A DNA stretch of 45,769 nucleotides, from the NCBI GenBank assembly GCA_902803285.1, contig CADCPC010000043.1, positions 1 through 45,769 of the forward strand, read 5' to 3'. A model generated the notes under the pieces. That model ran no database searches and was not told the DNA's origin. It was given only the letters and a program-made list of their open reading frames with translations. Position numbers and translations under genes: made by a program. Each line of letters opens with the position of its first letter. Positions within the stretch are counted from its first letter, which is position 1. Shown here one piece after another: positions 12,455-31,197 of the stretch. Source of the stretch: an uncultured Erysipelotrichaceae bacterium. GTDB lineage: Bacteria > Bacillota_I > Bacilli_A > RFN20 > CAG-826.

Positions 12455-12986
12455 CAAAAAACATTACATCATCACCTCTATTACATTAGGTCTTATTGGC
12501 GCGGCTAGCGCTGGTCTTATTGGCCTTAGCAACTTATTAACTAGAGATAGAATTGCTCGTAATGAAGCTAATAAAATCACGAGTGGCATTACTTCTATTT
12601 ATGGAGAAGATGCCTCAGTCAACAAAGAAGAAGACATTTCCGACCACAAATATGTTAACCATATTTATTACATTTATTCTGGAGAAACTTTGAAGGGATA
12701 CGCTTTTAAAACAAGTGGTTCTAATATGTACGGCAAGATTTCTTTGATCCTTGGCTTTGAAATCGAAGGAAATCTAACTCCTTTTGTTGGATTATCAATA
12801 GTTGTTAACGAGCAAACTTATGCGACAACACTAGTGGATAACTATGTCACTCCTGTTAACAACGGTCAAAGAGATTTAGATGATGTGAAGTGTGGTGCGA
12901 CATATGGAGCAACACTCATCAAAGATATGATTTATGAAGCAGCAGATGTTGCTCAAGCAAAATTAACGGTGAATAACAATGAGTAG
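12447..12986 (+). CDS. rnfG: Rnf complex subunit G (FMN-binding)
   Basis: N-terminal TM, GAT flavinylation motif, operon position; ATG 12447 after GGAGGTG. Confidence 0.85.
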   Translation: MSSKKHYIITSITLGLIGAASAGLIGLSNLLTRDRIARNEANKITSGITSIYGEDASVNKEEDISDHKYVNHIYYIYSGETLKGYAFKTSGSNMYGKISLILGFEIEGNLTPFVGLSIVVNEQTYATTLVDNYVTPVNNGQRDLDDVKCGATYGATLIKDMIYEAADVAQAKLTVNNNE

Positions 12987-13743
12987 GGAAAAGGGTTACA
13001 CAAAGAAGAACTTTCTTAAAGGCCTAATTGCTGAGAATCCATTATTTGTCTCCATCTTAGGTACTTGTCCTGCTTTAGCGACAACAAAGTCGATTGAAGC
13101 CGCTTTAGGTATGGGTTTATTATTCACTGTTGTTTTGATTTGTTCTAATATCCTAGTTTCTTTGTTAAGAAAACTTATTTCAGAGGAGATTAGAACCCCT
13201 GCTTATATCGTCATTATTGCGACATTCGTCACTATGGTCAAAATGATGACTAATGCTTTCTTGCCTGAACTATATTCAACATTAGGCGTGTTTATTTCCT
13301 TAATTGTTGTTAACTGTATTGTTTTAGGTAGAGCAGAAGCTTATGCGAGCAAGAATAATGTCTTTGATTCATTAATCGACGCTTTAGGTATGGGTATTGG
13401 TTATACCGTAGCATTATTAATCATGGCATTTTTCAGAGAAGTATTAGGCTCTGGAATGATTACATTTGGCACAATCTTTACCTTTATCCCTAAATTCTCT
13501 ATCCCAATCTTAAAATGTGTGAAAGATGGAGTGGTAATCTACGATTATTCCATTCAAATGTTCCAAAATCCAGCTGGTGCATTTATTGTCTTTGGTTTAA
13601 TCCTAGCGGTTATCGCTTTCGTTAAGAATAGAAAAGCAGAACTTAAAGCTTACCAAGAAAAACAAGAAAAACTTAAGAAAGCAGAAGCCGCTAGACTTGC
13701 TGCAGCTGCAAAGGCTAATGAAACTAGTGGAGGTGACAAATAA
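12979..13743 (+). CDS. rnfE: Rnf complex subunit E
   Basis: ENP....LGTCPALA, LIVVNCIVLGRAE, REVLG.G, PAGAF. Confidence 0.95.
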   Translation: MSREKGYTKKNFLKGLIAENPLFVSILGTCPALATTKSIEAALGMGLLFTVVLICSNILVSLLRKLISEEIRTPAYIVIIATFVTMVKMMTNAFLPELYSTLGVFISLIVVNCIVLGRAEAYASKNNVFDSLIDALGMGIGYTVALLIMAFFREVLGSGMITFGTIFTFIPKFSIPILKCVKDGVVIYDYSIQMFQNPAGAFIVFGLILAVIAFVKNRKAELKAYQEKQEKLKKAEAARLAAAAKANETSGGDK

Positions 13744-14342
13744 TGAGCATCTTTATTTCCTTTATCCTCGCAATATTGTCATCAATGTTAATTGATAATG
13801 TTGTTTTATCTAGATTCTATGGCATTTGTCCTTTCTTAGGCGTTTCTAAAAAGGTGAAATCTTCTTTAGGCATGGGGATTGCTGTTGTCTTTGTTATCGT
13901 CATTGCGACAGTTATTTGTTGGCCTTTATATACATATGTATTAGTCCCAGCAGGAATTGCTTTTATGGATACAGTAGCCTACATCCTAGTTATCGCTTCT
14001 TTAGTTCAACTAGTAGGCTTATTTATAAAGAAGAAGTCCCCTGCTTTATATGAATCATTAGGCATTTACCTACCTCTAATTACCACAAACTGTGCGGTTT
14101 TAGGAGTTGCACAATCTAATACAGATCAAGGTTTAACATTCTTAAACGCTTTAGCTAATGGAGTAGGAACTTCAATTGGCTTCTTACTTATCATCGTCAC
14201 TTTTAGCTGTGTGAGAACTAGACTTGAAAGTGCGAACACTCCAAAAGCATTTAAGGGATTACCTATTGCTTTGATTACCGCTGCTATCATGGCAATTGCT
14301 TTTATGGGATTACAAGGATTATTCTCAGGTATTAAATTATGA
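13743..14342 (+). CDS. rnfA: Rnf complex subunit A
   Basis: N.VL..F.GICPFLGVS, LGIYLPLITTNCAVLG, P.AF.GLPI. Confidence 0.95.
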   Translation: MSIFISFILAILSSMLIDNVVLSRFYGICPFLGVSKKVKSSLGMGIAVVFVIVIATVICWPLYTYVLVPAGIAFMDTVAYILVIASLVQLVGLFIKKKSPALYESLGIYLPLITTNCAVLGVAQSNTDQGLTFLNALANGVGTSIGFLLIIVTFSCVRTRLESANTPKAFKGLPIALITAAIMAIAFMGLQGLFSGIKL

Positions 14343-14533
14343 GTAGTGTTGGATATCTAATTCTCGCAATTGCTATACTTGTCATCTTATTAGCGACATT
14401 TATTATTTCTTTTGTCGCTTATCGTCGTACCCCTCTTCCAAAGGGTTGTGAACATCTTAAGATGGATGACCAAAAGTGTTCTTCTTGTGGACACAGTGAA
14501 TGTTCCTTCTACAAAGGAGAAGAAAAAGAATAA
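14339..14533 (+). CDS. 64-aa TM protein with a 4-Cys tail
   Basis: One TM then C-x8-CxxC-x4-C; ATGA overlap with rnfA stop. Confidence 0.7.
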   Translation: MSSVGYLILAIAILVILLATFIISFVAYRRTPLPKGCEHLKMDDQKCSSCGHSECSFYKGEEKE

Positions 14534-14535
14534 TT

Positions 14536-14853
14536 ATGGAAATATTGTGGGCTGTACTCGTCTTACTTGGACTTGGATTACTTCTCGGCTTAGGTTTAGC
14601 AATTGCCGCAAAACTTTTATATGTCAAAGAAGATGAGAGAATTGATGAAGTCGCTAAAAAGCTTCCTAATTATAACTGTGGTAGTTGTGGCTACGCTGGT
14701 TGTCGCGCTTTAGCGGAAGCAGTGATCAAAGGCAAAGAAGATAACATTAGAAAATGTAAACCAGGCAAAGAAGATCTCAACTTCAAACCAATTATTGAAT
14801 ATCTTAATGAACATCCAAATGAGGATGGTACTAAAGTGAAAATTCGTCCATAA
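14536..14853 (+). CDS. rnfB: Short RnfB (TM + N-terminal Fe-S domain only)
   Basis: V.EDERI...LP..NCGSCGYAGC..LA...C.PG; stops before any ferredoxin domain. Confidence 0.85.
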   Translation: MEILWAVLVLLGLGLLLGLGLAIAAKLLYVKEDERIDEVAKKLPNYNCGSCGYAGCRALAEAVIKGKEDNIRKCKPGKEDLNFKPIIEYLNEHPNEDGTKVKIRP

Positions 14854-14855
14854 GT

Positions 14856-15815
14856 ATGAAAATTAATCGTTTATTATCATTGTTATCTATCGCTATTCTC
14901 ACATCTTGTTCATCTGGCAAAAACTATCTTGATGGCAAGGTTTTTTGTTTTAATACTATCGTTCAAAGCATTCTCTATGAAGGTAACAATAATAATATTA
15001 CCGATATTAAAAATATCTTACTTGAATATGACGCTTTGACTGATAACTATGCAAAAAGAACTGGCATCAATAATGTTTACACCATTAACAACAGCGAAGA
15101 AGCAGTGGAAGTTGATCCTAAACTATATAACATTCTTTCCAAATGCATGGAAGTATCTCAAAAATATGAACTATTTAATCCTCTATGTGGTTCACTAGCA
15201 AAAAAATGGAAGAGCGCTTTAGCAAATAAACAAATATTAGATGAAGCAACCATTAATGAAGAATTAGAGAAGATTAAAAACTCCACTTTAGTGCTTGGAG
15301 AAAATAACACTGTGCAAATTATTGGAGAAGCCGAACTTGACTTAGGAGCGGTCGCAAAAGGATACGCTAACGATATAATTCGTGATTATTTGGCTACTAG
15401 TAGCATTACTAAGTATCTTATTAATTCTGGTGTATCTTCTGTTTTAGCTGGCGAAAAGAATAACACAGATGGTTTATATAATGTAGGATTACCACTCGTT
15501 GTAAAACGTGAATATTTTAAAGCCAAGAACATATTTATTTCCACAAGTGGAAATTACGAACAAGGTGTTGAGATTGAAGGTAAGACTTACTCTCATATCG
15601 TTAATCCAATTACAGGAAGCGCTTTGAACACGAATGATGCGGTGGTCGTGCTATCTGATTCTGGATATTTAGGAGATATCTATTCCACGTTATTAATGAT
15701 GTATGATATCGATGATATCAAGACTTTCGAACAAGAAGAAAACGTTAAAACAATTGTGATTAGAGGGACAGAAATTGTCTATCATCACCCAGATATTGAG
15801 GTCTTAACTCATTAA
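14856..15815 (+). CDS. apbE: FAD:protein FMN transferase lipoprotein
   Basis: Lipobox LTSC; DLGAVAKGY, STSGNYE, HIVNP..G. Confidence 0.93.
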   Translation: MKINRLLSLLSIAILTSCSSGKNYLDGKVFCFNTIVQSILYEGNNNNITDIKNILLEYDALTDNYAKRTGINNVYTINNSEEAVEVDPKLYNILSKCMEVSQKYELFNPLCGSLAKKWKSALANKQILDEATINEELEKIKNSTLVLGENNTVQIIGEAELDLGAVAKGYANDIIRDYLATSSITKYLINSGVSSVLAGEKNNTDGLYNVGLPLVVKREYFKAKNIFISTSGNYEQGVEIEGKTYSHIVNPITGSALNTNDAVVVLSDSGYLGDIYSTLLMMYDIDDIKTFEQEENVKTIVIRGTEIVYHHPDIEVLTH

Positions 15816-16189
15816 TGGATAAAACCAAACTTCGTAATGACATTATTCTTATTTTGTCTCTACTTTTAGTGGCGGCAGTGACTTTAATTGTGTTATTAAC
15901 AAGAACTACTCCTGGGAAAAAAACGGCCCATATTTCGGTGTCTAATCAAGAAGTAGAAGTTGTCGATTTATCTAAAAACGAAGATAAAGAATATTTAATT
16001 AATGGCACAAATGGCGTTTTGCATGTCCATACGCATGAAGGGGCAATTGCAGTTATTGAGTCTAACTGCCCTCATCAAGACTGTGTCCATATGGGCTATA
16101 TAAGTGAAGCTGGTCGTTCTATTGTTTGTATATATAACCAAGTTATTATCACGATTGATGGCGAACCAATAAATGATGTGGAGCTATAA
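15815..16189 (+). CDS. NusG domain II-containing membrane protein
   Basis: N-terminal TM; SNCP..DCV.MG.I......IVC; usual position between apbE and Gx transporter. Confidence 0.85.
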   Translation: MDKTKLRNDIILILSLLLVAAVTLIVLLTRTTPGKKTAHISVSNQEVEVVDLSKNEDKEYLINGTNGVLHVHTHEGAIAVIESNCPHQDCVHMGYISEAGRSIVCIYNQVIITIDGEPINDVEL

Positions 16190-16190
16190 G

Positions 16191-16709
16191 ATGAAAGTTC
16201 AAAAGATTGCTCTGCTTGGTGTATTGACCGCTGCGACAATAGTTATCGCGATTGCTGAAAGTTTTATTCCTTCAATTGGTATTCCAGGAGTAAAGCTTGG
16301 TTTGGCTAATATTATGATATTAGTGACTTTATATGAGCTTGGTATATTAGAAGCAATATTAGTGAATATATTCCGTGTTCTAGTGGTGGGACTAGTTAGA
16401 GGAACATTCTTATCGATGGGCTTTTTAATGTCTCTTACAGGAGCGGTATTATCATTAGCGGTAATGATTCTCTTCTATCTACTTATTAAAAAATTCTCCA
16501 TCATTGGAGTGAGTGTCATAGGTTCTGTTTTTCATGTATTTGGGCAAATCATTATTGCGATGATTTTTATGGGCACTGCTTATATATTGTTCTACCTACC
16601 AATTATTGCGATCTCCGCAATTATCACTGGAGTATTAGTAGGAATTGCCGCTAAATTGATAATTAGAACTGGTGTAATCAAAAAACAGAAAGAGAAATAT
16701 GATTTCTAA
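16191..16709 (+). CDS. Gx transporter / 'heptaprenyl diphosphate synthase component I' family membrane protein
   Basis: E..IP..IPGVKLGLAN, SIIGVSV.G...H..GQ. Confidence 0.88.
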   Translation: MKVQKIALLGVLTAATIVIAIAESFIPSIGIPGVKLGLANIMILVTLYELGILEAILVNIFRVLVVGLVRGTFLSMGFLMSLTGAVLSLAVMILFYLLIKKFSIIGVSVIGSVFHVFGQIIIAMIFMGTAYILFYLPIIAISAIITGVLVGIAAKLIIRTGVIKKQKEKYDF

Positions 16710-16735
16710 AATAAAAACGCACCATATGATGCGTT
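16708..16735 (-). terminator. Terminator of the minus-strand acyl operon (possibly bidirectional)
   Basis: On the minus strand AACGCATCA/TGGTGCGTT followed by TTTATTTT. Confidence 0.65.
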
Positions 16736-17429
16736 AATTGAATTTGGCTTCGAAGTATTTACTTTTGAAGTAGTAATTATCATCGATTTGCTCGTATTCA
16801 TAAGCGAATTTTTTATTAATAGGAATCTCTTTCTTAAATAGAATAGTGATTTCTTTGAAATCTAATGAATCTCCATTAGCGTATATTGTGTCACACATAA
16901 TACTCATATAGTGTGTGTTACTTAAGTGTCCGTTGATGTCCACTAATGAATAGTTTGCGGTGTAAATCTTTTTATTATGGAGTTCCGGTACTTTAAGCTT
17001 TACTACAGGAATAACGTCTGTAGGATTCATTTCTCCATTAATGATGATGCCGTTTTCTGCTGGATCAATAAATTGACGGGTGTTCTTATCGATTAATGAC
17101 CATAAGGCATTTGCTCTAATCAAGACTTCACCTGCTTCGTTTTTAACAATAATATTACGAGGGAAGAAGTAGTGGAGAGTCATTCCAGGAGTGCATTCTA
17201 AGATGATGTTTTCATCATATTCAGGCATTCTGTTTATAAGGATGTGTTCAGAAATGATGACCCACAAGAATCCTTTATCTAGTGTTTTGTCTCTGCCCAT
17301 CCCTAGTTCTTCAGTATGAGCGATACAACACTGCTGAAAAAGGTTCATAAAAGAAGAGAAGGTCATCTTCTTTCTATAATCCACTAGTTCAGATCTAACG
17401 TTAAGTTTTCTAATATAAACTTCGTTCAT
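16734..17429 (-). CDS. Acyl-ACP thioesterase (FatA/B-like double hotdog)
   Basis: V...VD, FQ.....H...LG, W.I......I.R.P, D.NGH..N..Y. Confidence 0.88.
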   Translation of the reverse strand: MNEVYIRKLNVRSELVDYRKKMTFSSFMNLFQQCCIAHTEELGMGRDKTLDKGFLWVIISEHILINRMPEYDENIILECTPGMTLHYFFPRNIIVKNEAGEVLIRANALWSLIDKNTRQFIDPAENGIIINGEMNPTDVIPVVKLKVPELHNKKIYTANYSLVDINGHLSNTHYMSIMCDTIYANGDSLDFKEITILFKKEIPINKKFAYEYEQIDDNYYFKSKYFEAKFN

Positions 17430-17674
17430 TATTTAAGTTCTTTTTGAATTGCGTCTAAAACATCACCAAAGGTGAGCATCTTTTCCCATTTACGATGTGG
17501 GATTTTAATATTGAATTCAGCTTCGATTCTGCACATGACATAGACGAAAGTCATTGAATCAACACCAGCGTCGTTATTAATTCTTGTGTCTTCTTTGAGT
17601 TCAACATCTTCAAATCCAGGTAGACATGTTTGAACGATGATTTGGGTTTTCTTGGCGATTTCTTCTCTTGTCAT
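17429..17674 (-). CDS. Acyl carrier protein
   Basis: 81 aa; GVDSM phosphopantetheine site; IE.EF.I.I; T.GD. Confidence 0.9.
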   Translation of the reverse strand: MTREEIAKKTQIIVQTCLPGFEDVELKEDTRINNDAGVDSMTFVYVMCRIEAEFNIKIPHRKWEKMLTFGDVLDAIQKELK

Positions 17675-17677
17675 TTG

Positions 17678-19000
17678 TTAATCCTCAACTTTAATTAAAT
17701 ATTTCATAACCTTTCCTGTTCCAGTTCTTGGAAGTTTATCTTTTGCGTAGATAATTTTCTCAATCTTGTGAGAACGGGATTGGGTTTTATTGAACTCGTC
17801 TACGATGTTTTCTACATCAATAGGCTTGTATATATACAATATTACTTGTCCTTTAGCATTTTGTAAAATGCAGAAATCACATCCTGGACCTAATAGTGAT
17901 AATAATTTAGCCTCATATTCTGGGATATATAATTTGCTACCATCGCCAAAGACCAATATTTCCTTTTTACGACCAGTAATGAATAGACAACCATCTTCTA
18001 TTTTTCCTAAATCACCAGTGTGGAGCTCTCCGTCAATCAAAGTGGCTTCAGTGGACTTAGGATCGTTATAATAACCTTTCATTAAAGTGGTGTTGCTTTT
18101 AACGATGATTTCTCCATCTTCTGCGATTCTAACTTTATAATCAGGGCAGATGGACATCGCTCTTGGATTATCATGCAATGATAAGGCAATACCAGAACTA
18201 GATTCAGTTAAACCATATCCATATGATAATCTAATACCTAACGCTTTAATCGCATTGATAGTCATATCATCACATGAACCTGCACCGATAAGAATTAATG
18301 ATAGTTCGTTATTGAATAATTTATTGAACACTAAGAATTTTGCCATTTCTGGAACTAGAGTGGTGACAGTTGGTTTATATAAAGCAAAATCAGTAAAGAT
18401 TTGTCTTAAACCATTGCCTAAACAGACAGTTGCACCAAATGAGATTGGCCATAGTATAGAACACACTAACCCAAAGACATGTGATAGTGGCAGAACCGCT
18501 AATAATTTGTCTTCTTTAGTAAGCGGCAATAATGAACCACCGTTAAAAGTAGCGTTACATAGTGTTTGCTCAGTTAAAACGACAGCCTTAGATTCACTTG
18601 TTGTACCACTAGTGAAGAATAAAATATCTTTATCTTCAGTGTGATAGTTAACTTCTAAGTGAGGGGTAAGAATATCTCTTAATTCTTCATCGCCAAATAA
18701 AATATGCCCAACATGAGTGGCTTTAATCTTTTTGATGAGTGATTCTTCTCTTTCGTTAGGGTCTAAGATAATTAATTGTTTCTTACTTGCTAAAGCGAAT
18801 AAGGCAATAATGCTTTCGATATTATTAGAAATAAATAGACCAACAACATCTTCTTTTGGAAGAGGATATTTATGTACTTTTTCAAGTAATTCTCCATAGG
18901 AGATTGATGCGATTTGTCCTTCTTTTAGATAGGAAAAAATGCAATCGTTAGATTCTTGTGCACTGATGAGCTCAGAAAAGCTTTTAAAACGTTTTATCAT
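17678..19000 (-). CDS. Long-chain fatty-acid adenylating enzyme (acyl-CoA/acyl-ACP synthetase)
   Basis: FTSGTTSESK, YGYGLTE, HTGDLG, GRKKE, LPRT.TGK; ATG at 19000 preferred. Confidence 0.9.
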   Translation of the reverse strand: MIKRFKSFSELISAQESNDCIFSYLKEGQIASISYGELLEKVHKYPLPKEDVVGLFISNNIESIIALFALASKKQLIILDPNEREESLIKKIKATHVGHILFGDEELRDILTPHLEVNYHTEDKDILFFTSGTTSESKAVVLTEQTLCNATFNGGSLLPLTKEDKLLAVLPLSHVFGLVCSILWPISFGATVCLGNGLRQIFTDFALYKPTVTTLVPEMAKFLVFNKLFNNELSLILIGAGSCDDMTINAIKALGIRLSYGYGLTESSSGIALSLHDNPRAMSICPDYKVRIAEDGEIIVKSNTTLMKGYYNDPKSTEATLIDGELHTGDLGKIEDGCLFITGRKKEILVFGDGSKLYIPEYEAKLLSLLGPGCDFCILQNAKGQVILYIYKPIDVENIVDEFNKTQSRSHKIEKIIYAKDKLPRTGTGKVMKYLIKVED

Positions 19001-19107
19001 ATAAGTTATTATAGCAAAATATGCTATAGATTGATAAAAATTATTGAAGAAAAGAGTAACTCTCAATTACAATATAATTGTCGTTAAAAATATAAGAGGT
19101 AAAATTA
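19001..19107. promoter_or_regulatory. Divergent promoter region with inverted repeats
   Basis: Minus TGcTATAAT 19016-19008; plus TTGAAG(19044)...TACAAT(19068); IR TATAGCA-5-TGCTATA 19010-19028. Confidence 0.55.
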
Positions 19108-20535
19108 ATGGACAAAAAAACAAGAATAGCCATTATCGGTGGTGGTCCAGCTGGACTTTCTGCTGGTATGTATCTCGAACAAAAAGGCTACGAGAACTAT
19201 GTCATTTTTGAAAAGACAGATCACGTTGGTGGAAAATGTCACTCCCCAACATTCCATGGCAAACGTCATGAAATGGGCGCTATCATGGGTGTCCCTAGTT
19301 ACTATGCAGTTCACGATGTCGAACTCTTTGCTGGCGTAACTCACGATGGACCAAAACTACACAGAACTTACCGTTTACCAAATGGTAAAGTTGATCATCG
19401 TTTCGACAAGAGACTCTTCAACATTCCACATCTCTTAAAGCTCAAAAAGCAAATCAAAAAATTTGGTGAAATCTTAGAAACCAAATATAAAGGTTATGAT
19501 GTTTGTGGCCATAGAGGCGTTTCTGAAGGTAGATACGAAGGTTTCGCAGTCACACCTGGTAGAGAACCAGTTAGCGGTGAAAATCCAAACTTAAAAGATT
19601 TAGCAATGCCTTTCAAACAATTCGTTGAAAAGAATGGCGTTCCACTAGTTCAAGAAATTTGGGTCCAACCATTCACATCATTCGGTTACGGATATTTTGA
19701 CGAAATCCCAGCTGCTTATGTCTTAAAATACTTAGACTTCCAAACCATGATGAACTTCGTCAATGTTAACTTATGGACTTGGAAAGATGGTACACAAAGC
19801 ATCTACGAAGCTTTAAATAGAAAGCTCAAACACCCAGCATTATTAAATAGCAACATCGAAAAGATCGTTCGTGGTGATAAAGTTGAAATCACTGTCAACG
19901 GTAAGAAAGAAGTCTTTGATAAATTAATTATCACTGCTCCATTACAAGTTGGTGAAATCAATAACCCAGTCGCTAAAGGATTAGACACATATCTTGATGT
20001 CACTCCAGAAGAAAGAGAATTATTCTCTAAGATCGACTACGAACGTTATGATACATTCGCATGGAATATGGCTCCAGAAGCATATCCAGAAGCATCATTC
20101 TACGTTGTTGACAATATGACACCAGAGACCTTAGGTCATGGTATGGTCTTCTATATGAGATGGGCTGGAGAACCAGAACAACCAATGATCTCTTATAGAT
20201 TACGTAAACACAGAGATCCAAAAGAAACTGTCGAAGAATACAAAGCACGTCCAGAATTAGGATATGAAGAAACAAAGAAAACTTGTATCGAAGATATCAA
20301 GGCTCTTGGTTTAGCTCCTTTGAAGGATGAAAACGGCAGAGACAAGATTATCTATGAATTCCAAACATATTACTTCCCACACGTCTTCTCTGAAGATTAC
20401 GCAAACGGATGGTATGAAAAAGTTGAAGCTATGCAAGGTAAAAACAATACCTACTATGCTGGTGAAGTTATGTCATTCGGTGACATGGACGAAACTGTCG
20501 AATATTCTAGAGATTTAGTCGAAAGATTCTTCTAA
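19108..20535 (+). CDS. FAD-dependent polyunsaturated fatty acid (linoleate) isomerase, Cutibacterium acnes PAI-like
   Basis: Colinear with PAI as recalled: RIAIIG.GPAGL.AGMYLEQ.G, TDHVGGKCHSP, EMGAIMGVPSY, PFT.FGYG.FD..PAAYVLKYLDF.TMM.F, LWTW.DGTQ, YYFPHV.SEDY..GWYEKVE.MQG, YAGE.MSFG. Confidence 0.88.
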   Translation: MDKKTRIAIIGGGPAGLSAGMYLEQKGYENYVIFEKTDHVGGKCHSPTFHGKRHEMGAIMGVPSYYAVHDVELFAGVTHDGPKLHRTYRLPNGKVDHRFDKRLFNIPHLLKLKKQIKKFGEILETKYKGYDVCGHRGVSEGRYEGFAVTPGREPVSGENPNLKDLAMPFKQFVEKNGVPLVQEIWVQPFTSFGYGYFDEIPAAYVLKYLDFQTMMNFVNVNLWTWKDGTQSIYEALNRKLKHPALLNSNIEKIVRGDKVEITVNGKKEVFDKLIITAPLQVGEINNPVAKGLDTYLDVTPEERELFSKIDYERYDTFAWNMAPEAYPEASFYVVDNMTPETLGHGMVFYMRWAGEPEQPMISYRLRKHRDPKETVEEYKARPELGYEETKKTCIEDIKALGLAPLKDENGRDKIIYEFQTYYFPHVFSEDYANGWYEKVEAMQGKNNTYYAGEVMSFGDMDETVEYSRDLVERFF

Positions 20536-20547
20536 TAAAACAATTTT

Positions 20548-20583
20548 GAATAAAAAGGGGAGTTCATCTCCCCTTATTCTTTA
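20548..20583 (+). terminator. Intercistronic hairpin (partial terminator or stabiliser)
   Basis: AAGGGGAG-ttcat-CTCCCCTT with an interrupted T-tail. Confidence 0.55.
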
Positions 20584-20597
20584 TAAAGGAGAGAAAA

Positions 20598-22172
20598 ATG
20601 GCAAATAAACATTTTCAAGATTCGTATGATGTTGTTGTCATTGGTGGTGCTCTTGCGGGACTTGCCAGTGCCTTAACATTAGCAAAAAAAGGAAAAAAAG
20701 TTCTCGTCTTAGAACAACACAATTTACCTGGTGGTATCGCTACTTCTTTTGTGAGAGGAGATGTCGAAATTGAAGGTACACTTCATGAAATGATGTCTAT
20801 CGGACCAAAAGAATGCCCATTAAAGATTAGAAAATTCTTTGATGAAATGGGTGTTGATATCGAATGGTTACGTGTTCCAGATGCTTATCGTTTTGTCGAT
20901 GGTAAAACTGGAGTTAACGTCTTAGTCCATCCTGGAGATCACGGCAATTTTGAAACGCCTGCTCGTGAAATTGCAGAAGCAGTTGAACCAGGAAACGAAG
21001 AACTTTATAAAAAAGTTTTAGACTTACTCAACTTATGTGGTAGAGTTTATGACTCAGTTAACATTCTTTCTGTTACTCACATGTCCAAAGTTCAAATGTT
21101 ATTGAAACATCCAGACTTTGTTAAGACTGCTGGATATAGCGCTAAGGAAGTTGTTGATACATTTAAACTTCCTCAAAAAGTTGTTGATATCTTATCAGCC
21201 TATTGGATTTATGTCGGTGACATTTTAGAAAACTTACCATTTACTGTTTGGGCTTTCTTAATGGGGGATTACCTCGGATATGGTAGTTATGTTCCAAAGA
21301 AATTCTCACACGAAATGTCTCTTAAGATGTGTGAACGCGCAATAGAAATGGGCTGCCAAGTCGAATTTGGTACACGCGTTGATAAAATCTTAGTCAAGAA
21401 TGGACACGTTGAAGGCGTGAGACTTGCTAATGGTGAAGAAGTTAAAGCAAGATATGTTGTTTGTAGTGCTTATCCTGATAAAGCATATACAAAGATGATT
21501 GAACCTCTCAGCGAAGTTCCTGCTGGCGCACTTAAGTTCGTCAATAGTAAAACTGTCGGTGTGACTTGCTTCTCTGTCGTCTTATTGCTAGACGATGAAC
21601 CAGAGAATTTAGGCATCAAAGATTATTCAACTTTCTATGCTCCAAAAGGTATGGACTTAGAAACAATATTCAAAGAATATGCAACAGAAGGTCCTTACAA
21701 TTACATCACTTCTATTTGTACTAACCTTGCTAACCCAGGTTGTACTCCAAAAGGTACTTGTGTATATTCCATTACTGCACTTCCTAGACCAGAAGGTTGG
21801 CTTGGAGTTACAGAAGAAAATTATGAAGAACTTAAACGTAAGAACGCTGAATATTTCATCGATCAAGAATCTAAACGTTTAGGTGTTGATTTAAGAAAAC
21901 ATATTTTAGAAATTGTTATTGAAGCACCTTGTACAATTGCTCACTACACAGGTGCATATCGTGGAAGTATCTACGGTTATATGCACACAATGGATGACCA
22001 TATTGTGGCAAGACTTCAAATGAGTGAAAAAGAAAACTTCATTCAAGGCTTATCTTTCGCTGGCGCTCACCAAATCTCTGGTGATGGTATGGGACCAGCA
22101 GTCACTAATGGTCGTAAAGGCGCAAAGATCATCTTAGACATGATGGAAGAAGACGCTAAGGAGGGCAAATAA
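20598..22172 (+). CDS. CrtI/CrtISO/retinol-saturase-like FAD oxidoreductase
   Basis: DVVVIGG..AGL..A, VLEQHN.PGG.ATSF.RG, P.T...YTG..RGSIYG, GL.FAG...G.G....V..G; SD AAGGAG. Confidence 0.85.
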   Translation: MANKHFQDSYDVVVIGGALAGLASALTLAKKGKKVLVLEQHNLPGGIATSFVRGDVEIEGTLHEMMSIGPKECPLKIRKFFDEMGVDIEWLRVPDAYRFVDGKTGVNVLVHPGDHGNFETPAREIAEAVEPGNEELYKKVLDLLNLCGRVYDSVNILSVTHMSKVQMLLKHPDFVKTAGYSAKEVVDTFKLPQKVVDILSAYWIYVGDILENLPFTVWAFLMGDYLGYGSYVPKKFSHEMSLKMCERAIEMGCQVEFGTRVDKILVKNGHVEGVRLANGEEVKARYVVCSAYPDKAYTKMIEPLSEVPAGALKFVNSKTVGVTCFSVVLLLDDEPENLGIKDYSTFYAPKGMDLETIFKEYATEGPYNYITSICTNLANPGCTPKGTCVYSITALPRPEGWLGVTEENYEELKRKNAEYFIDQESKRLGVDLRKHILEIVIEAPCTIAHYTGAYRGSIYGYMHTMDDHIVARLQMSEKENFIQGLSFAGAHQISGDGMGPAVTNGRKGAKIILDMMEEDAKEGK

Positions 22173-22173
22173 G

Positions 22174-23349
22174 ATGAAAGTTAAAGGCTTTTTAAAAGAC
22201 GTTGGTGGCGCTTCTAGAGTTACCAAAAGAAGACAAGAAAACTTTGATAAAGCTCCTGCAACTTCTCAATATAACGATCCGATTACAGAAGTAGCAAGAA
22301 AACTTCATCCTGGATTCATTAAATTAACTGTAACTGCAGTTAAAGATGCTTCTCCAACAGCGAGAACATTAAGATTCGAAGCTCCACATCTTCCATATTT
22401 CAGAGCTGGTCAATTCTTAACTTTACTAGTTAAGATTGGTGATTCTCTTGTTACTAGACCATATTCCATTTCTAGCGCACCTTATGAGACTAGAGGTGAT
22501 AAGCCATTAGTGGAAATCACTGTGAGAAAATCTAAAGGTGACGGATTCATTTGTGACTACTTATATGAAAAAGTGAAAGTTGGAGATGAATTCCTTGGCG
22601 AAGTTGGTTTAGGTGAATTCCATTATGATTACATTAGAGATGCGAAAGACGTTGTTGCTATCGCTGGTGGTAGTGGCATTACTCCTTTTGCATCAATGGC
22701 AAAAGAAATTAAAAATGGTAAACTCGACATGCATCTCACAATTCTTTATGGTTCTGTCAGTGATAAAGATATCATCTTAAAAGATGAATTAGATAAATGT
22801 GAATGCGAAAAGGTTAGAGTAGTTCACGTTTTAAGCGGTGATAACCCTTCTTGGAAAGGCGAAAAAGGCTTTATCAACGCGGATATCATTAAGAAATATT
22901 CTAGCGAAGACACCACATATTTCATTTGTGGACCACAAGTGATGTATGACTTTGTTAAAGGAGAATTAGCAAAGCTAAATATTCCTAAACGTAGAGTGAG
23001 ATTTGAAGTCTTTGGTCAAGTTAGAGACATCACTAAATTTGCAGGATTCCCAGTGGAATTAAAAGACAAAGTCTTTAACTTAACAGTTTGTAAAGGCATC
23101 TCTGAACAAGTTATTCCTGCAAAATGTAATGAGAGCATTGCTGTCGCACTTGAAAGAGCGGGAATTAAAGTTCATACAGCATGTCGTAGTGGCGCTTGTG
23201 GATTCTGCAGAATAAAAGTTCTTGAAGGTTCATATTATGTTTGCCCAGTTGGCGATGGTCGTAGAGCAGCAGATAAAGACTTCAATTACGTCCATTCTTG
23301 CTCAACTTATCCAACAAGTGATATTAAGATTAAACTTAATATTGACTAA
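22174..23349 (+). CDS. FNR-family NAD(P)H:flavin reductase with C-terminal [2Fe-2S] domain
   Basis: RPYSISS, AGGSGITP, CGP..M, E.FG, CRSGACGFC...C. Confidence 0.92.
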   Translation: MKVKGFLKDVGGASRVTKRRQENFDKAPATSQYNDPITEVARKLHPGFIKLTVTAVKDASPTARTLRFEAPHLPYFRAGQFLTLLVKIGDSLVTRPYSISSAPYETRGDKPLVEITVRKSKGDGFICDYLYEKVKVGDEFLGEVGLGEFHYDYIRDAKDVVAIAGGSGITPFASMAKEIKNGKLDMHLTILYGSVSDKDIILKDELDKCECEKVRVVHVLSGDNPSWKGEKGFINADIIKKYSSEDTTYFICGPQVMYDFVKGELAKLNIPKRRVRFEVFGQVRDITKFAGFPVELKDKVFNLTVCKGISEQVIPAKCNESIAVALERAGIKVHTACRSGACGFCRIKVLEGSYYVCPVGDGRRAADKDFNYVHSCSTYPTSDIKIKLNID

Positions 23350-23358
23350 AGATAATAT

Positions 23359-23393
23359 AAAAGACATCTAAGAGAAATCTTGGATGTTTTTTT
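23359..23393 (+). terminator. Intrinsic terminator
   Basis: GACATCTAAGA-gaaa-TCTTGGATGTT plus T-run. Confidence 0.85.
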
Positions 23394-23419
23394 GTGCACA
23401 ATAAATTAAAATAAGTAAT

Positions 23420-24322
23420 ATGAAAAAGAAGAGCATTATAATTGCCGGTTGCGTTGCTTTAGGCGCGATTATTTTTTCTTGCCTAGGATTTTCTGGCATC
23501 CTCAAACAGAAAAGCAAGAATACGAATTACGCAGATTGGATGTCTCATCTTGCGGATTCAACTTCTTTAAGAGACATCAATATGCCTGGTAGTCATGACA
23601 CAATGGCCTTATATTCTATCGCTGATTTAGCGGGACAGTGCCAGTCATTATCTTTAGGAGATCAACTTAATCTAGGAGTTAGATTCTTAGACATTAGATT
23701 AAAAGAAGAAAATAACTCTTTAAAAGCGGTACATGGTTTTATTGATCAACACGCTTATTTTAGTGATATTACTTCTACTGTTGAATCTTTCTTAGAAAAC
23801 CATCCAACCGAATTTATTATTATGTCGATTAAAGAAGAAGCTGATAGTAGCAAATCTACAATTAGCTTTGAAGAAGCGGTTAAGAATTACCTTAAGAGTG
23901 ATGTTTATTTAAAAGAGACAAGTTTACCAACCTCTTTAGGAACAGTTAGAGGCAAAGTCATGCTTTTATCTAGATATGCGAATTCTTCAATCGGAATCCC
24001 TGCTTATAATGGATGGGCTGATTCTACTTCCTTTACATTACCAAATGATATCTATGTTCAAGATACCTATAAGATTAAATCTAAAGAAGAAAAGCAAGAC
24101 GAAATCATCAAGTGTTTTAATGAGAGTGGTCACGCTTTGAAAATTAATTTCTTAAGTGCGTACCGCACTAACTATTTGCCACCTAGTTATGCACCTAGTG
24201 CAGCCTTAGATATCGACCCTTGGATTAACGCGAATATAGATAAATATAATGACCGCGGTATTGTTTTATATGACTTTGTTACTGAAACAAATATGACCGC
24301 TTTCTTTAAGGGGGCAATCTAA
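23420..24322 (+). CDS. Exported phosphatidylinositol-specific phospholipase C-like (PI-PLC X domain)
   Basis: Signal/TM; WMS.L, PGSHDT, QL..GVRFLDIRL, HG, FL..HP.E..I, RGKV. Confidence 0.88.
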   Translation: MKKKSIIIAGCVALGAIIFSCLGFSGILKQKSKNTNYADWMSHLADSTSLRDINMPGSHDTMALYSIADLAGQCQSLSLGDQLNLGVRFLDIRLKEENNSLKAVHGFIDQHAYFSDITSTVESFLENHPTEFIIMSIKEEADSSKSTISFEEAVKNYLKSDVYLKETSLPTSLGTVRGKVMLLSRYANSSIGIPAYNGWADSTSFTLPNDIYVQDTYKIKSKEEKQDEIIKCFNESGHALKINFLSAYRTNYLPPSYAPSAALDIDPWINANIDKYNDRGIVLYDFVTETNMTAFFKGAI

Positions 24323-24720
24323 TGAAAACTTTTAGAACTATCCTCCTATATATCGGAGCTTCATTTGTCGCTCTAATTGCTTTTTTATTAGCATTTTTAG
24401 AAATTAGAAGCATTTTTGCCGGTGATTTTACACTTATGAATAATAGAGCTGCTAGTTTCTTCGCTTATCTATTTAGAGGTTTATTCTATTTAGGTTTGTT
24501 AGCCGAGGCTATCATTTTAATGATATTCAAAGGCAAACACATCAAGATTGATTTATCATTATTCATTGTTTCTGTTGGCTTATTTGGTGGTGGAATTCTA
24601 GCATTTATTTATTACCACTTCATTGTTGCTTTAGCAGTAACAGTAGTAGCATTGATACCAGTAATTATCACAGCGATTGAACACTTTGCGATTAAAGAAA
24701 AAGACACTGTTGAGGAATAA
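24322..24720 (+). CDS. Hypothetical 4-TM membrane protein
   Basis: Four hydrophobic segments; TAATG coupling to the PLC gene. Confidence 0.7.
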   Translation: MKTFRTILLYIGASFVALIAFLLAFLEIRSIFAGDFTLMNNRAASFFAYLFRGLFYLGLLAEAIILMIFKGKHIKIDLSLFIVSVGLFGGGILAFIYYHFIVALAVTVVALIPVIITAIEHFAIKEKDTVEE

Positions 24721-24724
24721 TAAT

Positions 24725-26416
24725 ATGCCATTAGGAAGCACAATTAACTCTTTGATGATGATTGTTGGCAATATCAACACTGATAAGCCAACTAAGCAGG
24801 TAATTAAAAATCGTAAAAAAGATAAGCCTGCTACTTTTCCTCGTGGGGAAGAAGTTAACTTCTTACCTAGAAGTAGGCCTAGTAAGCATGGTTATTCAGA
24901 GGAATATATCAATTCATTTTTCCATGAATTAGAATCGGATTTATCTATTAGGGCTAACCGTTGTTTAATTGTTAAGGATAACTATGTTATTGGAGAAAAA
25001 TATGAATACCCTTATGTTAAAGATGCTTGGGATCATATATTTTCCGCAACCAAAACAGTTACAACTTTAGCGTTAGGTTTATTATATGATGAAGGCAAAA
25101 TTGATTTAGACGCCCCCGTATATAAAATACTTAAAATTAAACCAGGGAATGCTGCTAATAAAAAGATTACGTTAAGACATTTATTAACTATGACTACTGG
25201 TGTCTTGTTCAATGAAGTTGAAAGTGCAGCAACCACTAAATGGGTTAAAGGATTCTTTGGTTCAGGAGCTAAATTCAAAGTTGGTAAAAAGTTTGATTAT
25301 AATTCACTAAATACATATATCATCTCTGTTGTTGTCGAAAAGATAGCAGGTATTAGCTTTGAAGAATTCATTAAAGAAAGAATATTCAAACCTTTAGATA
25401 TGAATTCTTGCCATTTAGATAAATCTCCAGAAGGATATTTTAAAGGCGGATGGGGATTATATATTCTTCCAGAAGATATGGCAAAATTAGGCATCCTTGT
25501 CAAAGACAAAGGTGTTTATAACAATAAACGTATTATCTCTGAAAAATGGATAGAAATGATGAGCAGTAAACAAATCGAGGCCACTAAATACGGAAGAAGA
25601 TTTGATTATGGCTTTCAAATGTGGGTTTGTGATGAACATCATTTCTGCATGTTCAATGGCCTATATAATCAAGACATCATTATCTTTAAGGAAACAGGAG
25701 TGGTGCTAGTGGTGGCCTCTTCTAACGGAGAAGCGTTCCATGGCTCTAACTATTTCGATATCGCGATTAAATACTTTGCAAGCAAAGAAAAAACTACTGA
25801 ACTTTGCGAGACAAAAGGTTCGAGAGATATTGCAAATTTGTCCCATCTAAATTACTACTATGACAAGATTGCAAATCAAGAATACTTACCTTTGGGTAAG
25901 ATTGCTAATTCTTGTGGTGTTCTACCTCTGTTAATTCAAAATGAAGTAGGCACTTATGCACAAGGAATTAAATCATTATATTTTAAGAAAGAAAATGATC
26001 AGTACGCTCTTGTGATAAACGAAGGAAAAGAGAGCTATGAACTACCATTTAATTTCGAAAATGGAGTTCGTAATATTTATAACTTCTACGGCAATTTATT
26101 TGACTGTGTTTGTGATGGCAGATTTATGCTAACCGCTAAGGGTTTACCTCTATTTGTTTTCAGAATGTTTTTCTTAGAATATTCTTCTTCCAGATACATC
26201 ACTGTGAAATTTGATAAACGATTTGATTTGTTATCATTAGAGTTAAGTGAATATCCAGGATTTGACTTTGTCGCTTCACTTATGGATGAACAAGATGAAC
26301 CGGTGAAGAACCTTCTTAATAGTGCAATGAAGGCAATTAATCCAGCGATATTAAAGGGAAAGATTAAAGATATCTTTGCTCCTAACTTCATGATTAAAAA
26401 GAAGGAAGAGAAATAA
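24725..26416 (+). CDS. Beta-lactamase-fold serine hydrolase (esterase-like) with C-terminal extension
   Basis: FSATK (SxxK), TLRHLLTMTTG, F.YNS, RIF.PL.M, GGWGL, YGFQ.W; ATG 24725 after GAGGA. Confidence 0.85.
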   Translation: MPLGSTINSLMMIVGNINTDKPTKQVIKNRKKDKPATFPRGEEVNFLPRSRPSKHGYSEEYINSFFHELESDLSIRANRCLIVKDNYVIGEKYEYPYVKDAWDHIFSATKTVTTLALGLLYDEGKIDLDAPVYKILKIKPGNAANKKITLRHLLTMTTGVLFNEVESAATTKWVKGFFGSGAKFKVGKKFDYNSLNTYIISVVVEKIAGISFEEFIKERIFKPLDMNSCHLDKSPEGYFKGGWGLYILPEDMAKLGILVKDKGVYNNKRIISEKWIEMMSSKQIEATKYGRRFDYGFQMWVCDEHHFCMFNGLYNQDIIIFKETGVVLVVASSNGEAFHGSNYFDIAIKYFASKEKTTELCETKGSRDIANLSHLNYYYDKIANQEYLPLGKIANSCGVLPLLIQNEVGTYAQGIKSLYFKKENDQYALVINEGKESYELPFNFENGVRNIYNFYGNLFDCVCDGRFMLTAKGLPLFVFRMFFLEYSSSRYITVKFDKRFDLLSLELSEYPGFDFVASLMDEQDEPVKNLLNSAMKAINPAILKGKIKDIFAPNFMIKKKEEK

Positions 26417-26433
26417 CAAATCCTTCTTTTGCT

Positions 26434-26468
26434 AAAATAAGCAAGGTTTAATTACCTTGTTTTATTTT
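26434..26468 (+). terminator. Intrinsic terminator
   Basis: AATAAGCAAGGT/ACCTTGTTTTATT stem. Confidence 0.65.
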
Positions 26469-26493
26469 ATAAAAATCTATACAATATCCTTAC

Positions 26494-27165
26494 ATGAGCG
26501 AAGTAAAAATAGTAGAAATTAAAGAAGATATCTCTGAGAGATATGCTCCTTACGCTGAAGAGATTAGGAAAATTCTTAAAGAGAAGAAAACCTATCTTTT
26601 AAATGTTATGTCTTCTCCAGGAAGTGGAAAGACTACTTTAATTATTGAATTAATTAACAAGCTAAAAAAAGATTTTCATATTGGAGTTCTAGAAACTGAT
26701 ATTGACGGTAAAGAAGATGCTCAAAGGATACATGATGGTACTGGTGTGAGAACTATCCAAATCCATACTGGTGGAGCATGTCATTTAACAAGCAAAATGT
26801 CTCTTGAGGCATTATCTTTACTAGATGATGAACACTTTGATCTAATCGTTTTGGAAAACATCGGCAACCTAGTGTGCCCGGCAGAATTTGATGTTGGGGC
26901 AATTAAGAACTTAATCTTGTTATCTCTACCAGAAGGAGATGACAAACCACTCAAATATCCATTGATGTTTGAAGTTGCTAATATCATCGCAATTACCAAG
27001 CTAGATACTGCTCCTGTATTTGATTTTTCTAAAGAAAAAGCTATTCAAAATATTAAAAAGAGAAATGAACATGTAGATATATTCTTTACTAGTAGCAAAA
27101 CTGGTGAAGGTGTTGATGAGTTAGTTAAATATCTAACTAATGAAGTTAAGGAATTTATTAAATAA
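26494..27165 (+). CDS. hypB: HypB-family metallochaperone GTPase, copy 1
   Basis: MSSPGSGKT, TGGACHL, ENIGNLVCPAEFD.G, EGDDKPLKYP, TKLD, S.KTG.G. Confidence 0.93.
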   Translation: MSEVKIVEIKEDISERYAPYAEEIRKILKEKKTYLLNVMSSPGSGKTTLIIELINKLKKDFHIGVLETDIDGKEDAQRIHDGTGVRTIQIHTGGACHLTSKMSLEALSLLDDEHFDLIVLENIGNLVCPAEFDVGAIKNLILLSLPEGDDKPLKYPLMFEVANIIAITKLDTAPVFDFSKEKAIQNIKKRNEHVDIFFTSSKTGEGVDELVKYLTNEVKEFIK

Positions 27166-27836: not shown

Positions 27837-27839
27837 TAC

Positions 27840-30767: not shown

Positions 30768-30770
30768 TTC

Positions 30771-31139: not shown

Positions 31140-31197
31140 GTTGTTTAACATTTTGTTTTTTAGAATAAAAATGTTAAAATGCATACGTCAAAAGCGT

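Follow-up and report, generated by a model that had tools for sequence, protein, structure and literature searches.

Gene layout of the cluster

We analysed a stretch of 45,769 nucleotides (hereafter the window; contig CADCPC010000043.1 from an uncultured Erysipelotrichaceae bacterium) that carries a compact cluster of six genes with a predicted role in processing the double bonds of polyunsaturated fatty acids (PUFA). On one side of a divergent intergenic region lie a ligase, an acyl carrier protein (ACP) and a thioesterase, which we call the arm, and on the other side lie a homolog of the fatty acid isomerase PAI, a flavoenzyme of the CrtI family and a ferredoxin-fused reductase of the FNR type. 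The features of the cluster, as predicted, are the following.

16716-16735, minus strand: hairpin terminator of the thioesterase arm (-9.8 kcal/mol, then a U-run)
16734-17429, minus strand: acyl-ACP thioesterase, 231 aa (open frame; Pfam Acyl-ACP_TE and Acyl-ACP_TE_C)
17429-17674, minus strand: dedicated ACP, 81 aa (Pfam PP-binding; serine in a D-S-M motif)
17678-19000, minus strand: adenylate-forming (ANL) ligase, 440 aa from the ATG at 19000 (Pfam AMP-binding)
19001-19107, no strand: divergent intergenic region of 107 bp between ligase and PAI
19108-20535, plus strand: PAI-type FAD-dependent polyunsaturated fatty acid double-bond isomerase, 475 aa (match to 2b9w_A)
20555-20575, plus strand: hairpin between PAI and the CrtI-like gene, a possible partial terminator (-15.1 kcal/mol)
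20598-22172, plus strand: divergent CrtI/phytoene-desaturase-family flavoenzyme, 524 aa (Pfam Amino_oxidase)
22174-23349, plus strand: FNR-type NAD(P)H:FAD reductase fused to a plant-type [2Fe-2S] ferredoxin, 391 aa (FAD_binding_6, NAD_binding_1, Fer2)
23359-23399, plus strand: intrinsic terminator closing the PAI arm (hairpin 23359-23392, -16.5 kcal/mol, then seven U)

All six genes are intact and open, in the order and around the divergent gap of ~107 bp that a sequence-only reading of this DNA had described, and the terminators it had placed at both ends were recovered as hairpins followed by U-runs. The genes are tightly packed: thioesterase and ACP overlap by 1 nt, ACP and ligase are separated by 3 nt, and FNR starts 1 nt past the CrtI-like stop. 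The ligase frame extends to a TTG at 19066, and it is the first ATG, at 19000, that gives the 107-bp gap. When folding was compared with that of shuffled sequence, the terminator after FNR gave z -6.6 (0/200 shuffles equal) and that after the thioesterase z -3.4 (1/200 shuffles equal); the latter hairpin, at 16716-16735, is foldable on the plus strand too, where it lies 3' of the upstream gene. The hairpin between PAI and the CrtI-like gene is weak (z -1.8, 7/200 shuffles equal). A scan for consensus promoters was at chance level, with 27 sites found and 31 expected. A perfect 7-5-7 palindrome at 19010-19028 lies beside the best minus-strand -10-like hexamer.

A PAI-type isomerase

The gene that the sequence-only reading called 'PAI-like' indeed encodes a close homolog of a solved PAI-type isomerase. 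Its best match among solved chains is 2b9w_A (E 2.3e-118, 399 bits, over residues 2-136 and 163-475), which we take to be PAI itself, and the next solved-chain match reaches only 1e-6. Homology to the C. acnes enzyme extends over the full length and the FAD fold is common to both. Amino_oxidase is the Pfam family of both flavoenzymes of the cluster, each above the curated cut-off (54.3 and 53.8 bits). The FAD dinucleotide motif G-G-G-P-A-G occupies residues 11-16 of the isomerase, and G11, G13, P14, A15 and G16 are invariant among 20 homologs. In the same alignment, the residues that coincide with the substrate gate of the C. acnes enzyme (presumably Arg88, Phe168 and Phe193 in its numbering) are kept: R86 is nearly invariant, and F192 and F217 are invariant. 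[quoted passage not shown] The same product is given in a further source, in the part drawn on here (PMC13365329). We conclude that the isomerase very probably carries out an FAD-dependent double-bond isomerisation of C18 PUFA of the PAI type, as its homology predicts.

The enzyme of the window differs from the solved chain by extra insertions, including one of ~26 residues at 137-162, and, unlike the known enzyme, it is embedded in a cluster with a ligase, an ACP, a thioesterase and a reductase. The 137-162 insertion was considered as a marker of the ACP-linked clade and rejected, as it is found in all gut clades. Homologs of the isomerase number 1070. One of these (P0018), 82% identical, is filed under the rumen fungus Anaeromyces robustus on a 94.9-kb contig, and it represents either bacterial contamination or transfer into the fungus.

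Co-conservation and spread of the cluster

A pattern scan with one genome per species returned at least 599 stretches, of which at least 588 are confirmed PAI relatives. The best 80 of the at least 588 PAI stretches were taken with up to 10 kb of flank and, together with the window, make up the 81 loci discussed below. The co-conservation across gut and rumen metagenome-assembled genomes (MAGs) that the sequence-only reading anticipated is borne out: all six genes are present in 44/81 loci, and the flanks are unrelated. The complete ligase-ACP-thioesterase arm is found in 73/81 loci and at least one arm gene in 76/81; of the five loci without any arm gene, three break off less than 400 bp upstream of PAI. 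The CrtI-like and FNR genes are both present in 49/81 loci, just one of them in 5/81 and neither in 27/81. Because flank is ample in at least 11 of these 27, the absence of CrtI and FNR is real in at least 11 loci.

An all-against-all clustering of the 4043 open reading frames (ORFs) from the loci revealed no seventh common gene; the most frequent real family after these six is limited to 11 loci or fewer, and the remaining frequent ORF families are shadow frames within the six genes. Four flank genes of the window were tested against the 80 other loci, where three were unmatched and one, a PI-PLC gene, had a single weak match. The genes stay linked although their order is shuffled: L006 and L012 carry all six on the same strand, and CrtI-FNR is placed behind the thioesterase in L026, L027, L029 and L031. 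The divergent gap has a median of ~130 bp in the 68 loci with this layout. No common operator motif was recognised by eye in the 17 of these 68 regions inspected, nor is the 19010-19028 palindrome kept in the intergenic regions of the other loci inspected. In five loci with Erysipelotrichaceae or Solobacterium labels (L048, at 6956-7666, L057, L063, L067 and L078), the gene of a GntR regulator with an FCD/FadR C-terminal domain, read in the opposite direction, separates PAI from the CrtI-like gene, and it is possible that this protein is an acyl-responsive regulator of the cluster.

In a midpoint-rooted FastTree phylogeny of 100 PAI sequences, those linked to the arm form one clade of 82 rows with an SH-like support of 100. 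Within this clade the six-gene form is widespread and early-branching, and most of the arm-only forms fall into two subclades. Record titles place MAGs of Bacillota, Actinomycetota and Spirochaetota in the clade, and some of these labels look unreliable. The sampled congeners of the window's genome (n=4) lack this ligase and CrtI and carry a PAI of another type (~54% identity), from which we infer that the island was probably acquired laterally. An empty site could not be defined in these congeners; three of them keep the HypB-HypB-IsrA-HypA genes discussed below, in surroundings that are not syntenic. Among 72,556 plasmids there are only two distant matches (24-28% identity).

The sequence-only reading knew of no described operon with this layout. 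Our search of the open full-text literature, which had subscription journals and supplementary files outside its scope, likewise returned no description of the six-gene layout.

The ligase-ACP-thioesterase arm

The arm combines three recognisable protein families, each at some distance from characterised subfamilies. The thioesterase is FatA/FatB-like, with two hotdog domains; it scores 80 bits against Acyl-ACP_TE (cut-off 23.7) and 23.6 against Acyl-ACP_TE_C (cut-off 21), and it matches the solved acyl-ACP thioesterases 2ess (E 7e-11) and 5x04 (E 6.5e-9). The ACP reaches 25.1 bits against PP-binding (cut-off 20.8) and falls under every NCBIfam AcpP cut-off, the best score being 52.4 bits against a threshold of 70. 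It is the lowest-scoring of the six PP-binding hits in the genome. One of the other ACP-like hits lies beside PlsX and DegV on contig 14. The genome contains two phosphopantetheinyl transferases (PPTases). A PPTase hit lies near a PP-binding hit within a 1954-aa open frame on contig 39 (~39149-42432), which may be a gene resembling a non-ribosomal peptide synthetase or polyketide synthase (NRPS/PKS) in a 1-Mb genome. The ligase scores 104.5 bits against AMP-binding (cut-off 29.9) and reaches no FadD or MenE equivalog cut-off of NCBIfam; its best solved relatives are acyl-, oxalyl- and succinylbenzoate-CoA ligases and FadD13 (E 1e-25 to 1e-22).

The distribution of the ligase ties the arm to PAI. 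In a sample of 201 genomes from the window's order, homologs of the ligase (E<=1e-40) are found in 21, of which 20 are PAI-positive, and the sole ligase-positive, PAI-negative genome is a 100-contig assembly. The ligase adjoins PAI in 18/18 genomes with both on one contig (of the 20 PAI-positive ones). The arm is specific to the PAI pathway. General fatty acid salvage was considered as a role for the arm and ranked low, because the ligase family is almost confined to PAI neighbourhoods.

The arm resembles the JamABC and TtuABC systems, which also combine a dedicated acyl-ACP ligase, an ACP and an enzyme that alters the unsaturation of the tethered chain. However, those systems presumably use membrane di-iron desaturases, whereas the enzymes of the window belong to other families. 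In addition, a thioesterase is included here and a downstream PKS or NRPS was not seen.

The hosts appear to depend on exogenous acyl chains. The window's genome (1.04 Mb, 91% complete) gives no match to a ketoacyl synthase (KAS), two hits to PlsX and three to DegV. Full-length KAS of the FabF type is absent from 33 of 35 PAI-locus genomes in a sample chosen to span the tree; 23 of the 33 have no match, and 10 have short matches in ~400-aa frames, which we take as thiolases. The remaining two of the 35 are the genome of L084 and one with an 824-aa fusion. Of 121 genomes in G039's family, 72 have KAS, and the 3/3 PAI-positive genomes are among the 49 without it, although this sample is small. 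In 13 genomes of the window's order (e.g. G214:C48:35588-37480), KAS domains occur only inside ~800-aa frames. The absence of KAS suggests that the hosts are fatty-acid auxotrophs that tailor PUFA, and that the island serves cells building their membranes from exogenous, largely polyunsaturated, fatty acids.

An auxotrophic host could also use the arm as a delivery route. Under this explanation, all of the chemistry takes place on free acids, ligase and ACP activate the product for phospholipids in cells that lack type II fatty acid synthesis (FAS II), and editing or buffering of the acyl-ACP pool falls to the thioesterase. The hosts without KAS, with PlsX twice and DegV three times in the window's genome, fit this explanation, as do the dispensability of the arm in other PAI clades and the aligned carboxylate-binding arginine, which is kept in all PAI clades bar the long-branch sequence L102. 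However, DegV (of the FakB family) and PlsX already provide the parts of a route for exogenous acids, and the ligase family is found beside PAI (20/21 genomes) and is not general in auxotrophs (187/201 genomes of the order are without KAS). A thioesterase in the same operon would, moreover, counter delivery. We consider a pure delivery role distinctly unlikely.

The CrtI-like flavoenzyme and its FNR partner

The second flavoenzyme is a remote member of a family best known from carotenoid synthesis. Amino_oxidase (PF01593) covers residues 19-512, and a profile of 29 homologs matches the solved chains 4rep (2.4e-22) and 4dgk (2.1e-8) over the full length, which places the protein in the family of CrtI, CrtD, CRTISO and RetSat. 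Unlike these enzymes, it misses the cut-off of crtI_fam (TIGR02734, 77.4 versus 238.1 bits) and is paired with an FNR-[2Fe-2S] protein of its own. Its scores against the carotenoid equivalogs also fall far short of every cut-off and are similar for carotenoid isomerase (72.6 bits) and the desaturases (71-77 bits), and protein-atlas relatives carry only 'phytoene desaturase family' names. No carotenoid pathway genes were found among the 27 window ORFs scanned with Pfam, and crtB and crtE were not sought genome-wide.

The FNR protein has the domain order of PaaE, Hcr and BenC with a conserved 45-residue N-terminal extension, and it scores well under the cut-offs of these nearest NCBIfam models (PaaE 125 versus 421, Hcr 123 versus 383, BenC 119 versus 430 bits). 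Cysteines C337, C342, C345 and C376 and the motifs R-x-Y-S and G-G-x-G-x-x-P are invariant in 24 sequences. The CrtI-like and FNR genes are always paired, as both are present in 49 loci and the five loci with just one gene end at contig ends. Stand-alone CrtI-FNR or CrtI-FNR-CrtI units also exist apart from PAI, and the genes around the stand-alone units gave no functional clue. Close CrtI homologs are found in 19/201 genomes of the order, 11 with PAI and 8 without, and 17/19 of these genomes have IsrA-like genes, which are introduced below. CrtI-FNR-CrtI triads, in which a second paralog (43-47% identical) follows FNR, occur in L019, L020, L105, L106, L107 and L112; in the hosts of the triad loci L105-L107 and L112, a PAI match was absent in the order-sample search.

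Sequence alone cannot separate a saturase, a desaturase and a cis/trans isomerase for the CrtI-like protein. RetSat and CRTISO demonstrate that the same fold, with reduced FAD, can saturate or isomerise C=C bonds, and FNR-[2Fe-2S] proteins usually hand over electrons from NAD(P)H. We favor reduction over desaturation, because the partner is a reductase of the NAD(P)H type and the hosts are anaerobic. A phytoene-desaturase-like enzyme with a fatty acyl substrate has been described: UfaD, in furan fatty acid synthesis, introduces a 10t,12t diene into a fatty acyl chain, and in the part of that report considered here the diene product was detected in aerobically grown cells only (PMC7380195). Compared by these descriptions only, UfaD and the enzyme of the window are both phytoene-desaturase-like flavoenzymes associated with C10-C13 of a C18 chain and with a 10,12 diene. 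However, UfaD makes the diene, whereas the enzyme of the window occurs in anaerobes with an NAD(P)H-linked reductase, where the reverse direction is more likely.

The UfaD precedent opens the possibility that the cluster produces a specialised lipid or signal, in which a UfaD-like CrtI desaturase extends the diene to a triene or polyene on ACP and FNR removes the electrons. Characterised relatives of CrtI are mostly desaturases, and a carrier-bound sequence of loading, modification and release is common in natural-product pathways. Against this, the hosts are anaerobic, and desaturation onto NAD(P)+ would be uphill on general thermodynamic grounds, with an FNR-[2Fe-2S] protein running counter to its normal direction. 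Co-conserved tailoring, condensation or export genes were not found in the loci. We regard a polyene product as very improbable, and keep to reduction over desaturation for the CrtI-like enzyme.

An IsrA-like, probably nickel-dependent module tied to PAI

A second candidate reductase, which the sequence-only reading missed, lies 3.1 kb downstream of the cluster in a HypB-HypB-IsrA-like-HypA module (26494-31121).

26494-27165 and 27165-27836, plus strand: two tandem CobW/HypB-family GTPases (Pfam cobW, 62.5 and 66.9 bits)
27840-30767, plus strand: IsrA-like Fe-S flavoprotein, 975 aa (domain architecture)
30771-31121, plus strand: HypA nickel metallochaperone, 116 aa (Pfam HypA, 103 bits)

The translated HypB GTPases contain a P-loop and a Cys-His...Cys motif, and HypA begins with Met-His-Glu and has two CxxC motifs. 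The N-terminus of the IsrA-like protein consists of ~320 aa without a Pfam domain and contains C-x-C motifs at Cys226/228 and Cys300/302. This is followed by Fer4 (329-351), Fer4_20 (DPD domain II, PF14691; 399-478), Pyr_redox_2 (PF07992; 498-795) and a C-terminal 4Fe-4S motif (Cys873-896).

IsrA is a putative isoprene reductase of Acetobacterium wieringae, and its 'clade 9' relatives, of ~900 aa and with 4Fe-4S motifs close to residue 300 and at the C-terminus, are alike in architecture; in the parts of the report drawn on here, hypA is found nearby in 73% and hypB in 56% of these relatives (PMC10134865). The neighbourhood list there names HypA, HypB, TetR_N and DUF5692. Its authors propose nickel insertion and the reduction of unfunctionalised conjugated double bonds by IsrA (PMC10134865), a function that in these parts of the report rests on proteogenomics, with no purified enzyme. 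Judged by the published description, the 975-aa protein agrees with IsrA in its pair of CxC motifs, its four 4Fe-4S motifs, DPD domain II and PF07992. The neighbours agree as well, with HypA directly downstream and two HypB directly upstream. In contrast to the IsrA operon as described there, the module of the window is without a 4Fe-4S ferredoxin partner gene and has a single hypA, and it is linked to a fatty acid isomerase, which is absent from those parts of PMC10134865. At 91% completeness, the window's genome yields no large subunit of a [NiFe]-hydrogenase, and because of this we assign the Hyp proteins to the IsrA-like enzyme, which they probably serve.

IsrA-like genes accompany PAI almost without exception. 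Full-length IsrA-like genes are found in 40/40 genomes behind loci L005-L044, and the IsrA N-terminal domain in 39/40 genomes behind L045-L084, giving 79/80 PAI-locus genomes in total; the one miss is the L084 genome, whose PAI is without the arm. In the order sample, where the PAI and N-domain lists were compared by hand, the N-domain occurs in 74/201 genomes and PAI in 39/201, and the N-domain is present in 39/39 PAI-positive but 35/162 PAI-negative genomes. The genes are also physically linked. An IsrA-like gene of ~930-975 aa with CobW/HypB lies within 10 kb of PAI in 10/81 loci, from three phyla by record title, and PAI, (HypB), IsrA and HypA lie side by side in 7/19 loci of distant PAI clades, without the arm and without CrtI and FNR. 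This physical adjacency in varied arrangements and phyla is a stronger argument than the co-occurrence counts. The link of PAI to IsrA is tighter than its link to CrtI and FNR. We found no description of it within the scope of literature given above, where 'isoprene reductase' is rare and, among the matches listed, confined to the isoprene context; the supplementary neighbourhood tables of PMC10134865, outside that scope, may list neighbours of the amine oxidase family.

Many PAI-locus genomes hold two to five IsrA-like paralogs. The window's genome has a second one, of 941 aa, on contig 15 (L113:6902-9727), with an N-domain that is 43% identical; no Hyp gene lies upstream of it in the stretch examined, and the contig ends ~740 bp past the gene.

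These observations make the IsrA-like enzyme a rival of CrtI-FNR for the role of diene reductase, and the better-precedented candidate. In the most extreme form of this rivalry, PAI acts on free acids, the IsrA-like nickel enzyme is the sole diene reductase, and the CrtI-like protein is a CRTISO-like isomerase, kept reduced by FNR with no net redox change, or acts on a different bond or on intermediates derived from 18:3. CRTISO requires reduced FAD. Such a division of labor would account for the near-universal presence of IsrA-like genes in PAI genomes (79/80), for their operons with PAI where CrtI is absent and for the optional nature of CrtI and FNR across PAI loci, and it is compatible with the similar NCBIfam scores for carotenoid isomerase and desaturases. 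However, the sequence features found here do not separate an isomerase from a saturase, the six-gene form is widespread and early-branching, and a dedicated NAD(P)H reductase would be costly for a reaction of zero net redox. The presence of IsrA-like genes in 17/19 genomes with close CrtI homologs is compatible with both views. We judge it unlikely, if well worth considering, that the IsrA-like enzyme acts alone, and continue to treat both systems as candidates.

Both candidates also raise the question of whether fatty acids are the true substrates, as the precedents from the CrtI family and IsrA act on isoprenoids and the CrtI-FNR module occurs without PAI. Plant isoprenoids such as phytol- or carotenoid-derived acids would be the alternative. 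However, PAI is very similar to a fatty acid isomerase, the thioesterase is of the fatty acyl-ACP family, a FadR-type regulator is present in five loci, and isoprenoid pathway genes are not co-conserved in the loci. We give an isoprenoid substrate hardly any weight, and return to C18 PUFA as the preferred substrates.

A proposed pathway and its standing

We propose, with a confidence a little short of an even chance, that the cluster is a self-contained, horizontally spread module that processes the double bonds of exogenous C18 PUFA in anaerobes of gut and rumen that are mostly without FAS II. Hypothetically, this would proceed in four steps. First, the ANL ligase would adenylate the free fatty acid and load it onto the dedicated ACP. 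Second, and well supported by homology, the PAI-type isomerase would move a cis double bond so that a conjugated diene results, which would be of the trans-10,cis-12 type provided that the regiochemistry is kept. Third, the conjugated system would be reduced to a monoene, either with electrons passing from NAD(P)H via FNR-FAD-[2Fe-2S] to the CrtI-family flavoenzyme, or by the neighbouring IsrA-like Fe-S flavoenzyme, which probably requires nickel, or by both. Fourth, the acyl-ACP thioesterase would free the product, or the acyl-ACP would go to PlsX/PlsC. Beyond the isomerisation, all of these steps are ones that we infer from homology and gene context. Physiologically, the pathway would convert membrane-disordering dietary PUFA into trans or saturated chains usable by an acyl-auxotrophic cell.

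The sequence-only reading held that the cluster first isomerises and then reduces its substrate. The first half of that reading is upheld by the homology of the isomerase, and the six genes are co-conserved; the tethering to an ACP and the trans-10 18:1 product that it suggested are hypothetical. The assignment of CrtI and FNR as the diene reductase is weakened by their absence from 27/81 PAI loci and by close homologs in 8/19 genomes without PAI. Each of the two reductase candidates, CrtI-FNR and the IsrA-like enzyme, has roughly even odds of taking part.

Several points weigh against the pathway as proposed. The C. acnes PAI presumably acts on fatty acids in free form, and its carboxylate-holding arginine is conserved here, so isomerisation on ACP is not required; other PAI clades are entirely without the arm. 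Because this arginine is conserved and such arm-less clades exist, the ACP-dependent step may be placed after PAI. A ligase and a thioesterase acting on one carrier are a futile cycle unless a step lies in between. CrtI and FNR are optional, as described above, most characterised CrtI-family enzymes desaturate, and the curated crtI_fam cut-off is missed. The function of IsrA itself comes, in the parts of the report considered, from proteogenomics only (PMC10134865). The window's order is mostly without KAS (no match in 187/201 genomes), and auxotrophy is not discriminating there. The co-occurrence counts overstate the evidence, as they stem from related genomes, incomplete MAGs and some implausible MAG labels, and the functions of all of the cluster proteins are predictions.

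A broader proposal, which we consider doubtful, is that reductases of ruminal biohydrogenation are encoded here, of the IsrA type (nickel-chaperone-dependent) together with or instead of CrtI-type enzymes plus FNR, that the process is partly ACP-borne and an anabolic device of auxotrophs, and that IsrA-type enzymes are a general class of alkene reductases for unactivated conjugated dienes in lipids. If this is true, biohydrogenation would be lipid tailoring by auxotrophs, beyond detoxification. If the IsrA link holds, a large, unexplained family of nickel-associated oxidoreductases would gain its first physiological class of substrates.

Relation to known biohydrogenation systems

The proposed conversion of linoleate via conjugated to more saturated C18 acids resembles that of the CLA-HY/CLA-DH/CLA-DC/CLA-ER system of Lactobacillus and of the CLA reductase of Butyrivibrio, as these are described in the part of the source used here (PMC13365329). 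The enzyme families here are entirely different from those of the Lactobacillus pathway, and there is no match to the MCRA hydratase family in the window's genome. Both the isomerase and the overall process have precedents, and we found none for the layout of the genes, for the carrier arm or for either of the candidate links to a reductase.

Rumen-made trans-10,cis-12 CLA lowers milk fat. In the parts of two reports considered here, the bacteria behind trans-10 intermediates are said to be unclear (PMC7339423), and a rumen strain was lacking until one C. acnes isolate (PMC11770317). Isomerases of the PAI type (at least 588 related stretches) are common among uncultured Bacillota of the rumen and in other phyla; they come with fixed partner genes and have links to two candidate systems for C=C reduction. 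This provides a clonable short list for enzymes that hydrogenate conjugated fatty acids, with candidates for the 'trans-10' route, and the cluster genes can serve as markers in metagenomic and metatranscriptomic work on milk-fat depression.

Habitat, expression and neighbouring genes

The rumen setting assumed by the sequence-only reading agrees with the record titles and RNA libraries, which point to a ruminant gut habitat. A ruminant and a gut compartment are named in 18/80 locus record titles. Sequencing runs with small shares of the query words were left out of the habitat evidence. Contigs from RNA libraries of four studies (bovine, sheep, gut metagenome) match positions 16000-31500 at 92-100% identity. 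Contigs of all four studies cover PAI at ~99% identity, among them one of 1427 nt (X2) from 19114 to 20536 with 14 differences, and others cover parts of the CrtI-like, arm, HypB, IsrA-like and HypA genes. Gaps in this cover, such as 23755-24788, carry no information on expression. These contigs are a hint of transcription; against their use as support, RNA libraries may contain DNA, and the contigs cannot rank the genes. The match of X2 ends at 20536, just ahead of the hairpin that separates PAI from the CrtI-like gene. That of the X3 contig, from a second study, ends at 20536 too and is followed by 58 letters unlike the window, and X3 may derive from a strain whose downstream context differs. 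The shared end is a weak hint of partial termination.

Three genes separate the cluster from the Hyp/IsrA module.

23420-24322, plus strand: PI-PLC-X-domain protein (Pfam), whose N-terminus resembles a signal or lipoprotein sequence by eye
24322-24720, plus strand: protein without a Pfam match, 132 aa
24677-26416, plus strand: beta-lactamase/esterase-family protein, 579 aa (Pfam)

None of these genes at 23420-26416 belongs to an ORF family common to three or more loci, and a role for them in releasing fatty acids from plant lipids is speculation. The region upstream of the cluster (12979-16709) encodes membrane subunits of the Rnf type together with an Fe-S protein, ApbE, a protein with a NusG_II domain and component I of heptaprenyl diphosphate synthase. 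Fe-S reductases could receive reduced ferredoxin from an Rnf complex.

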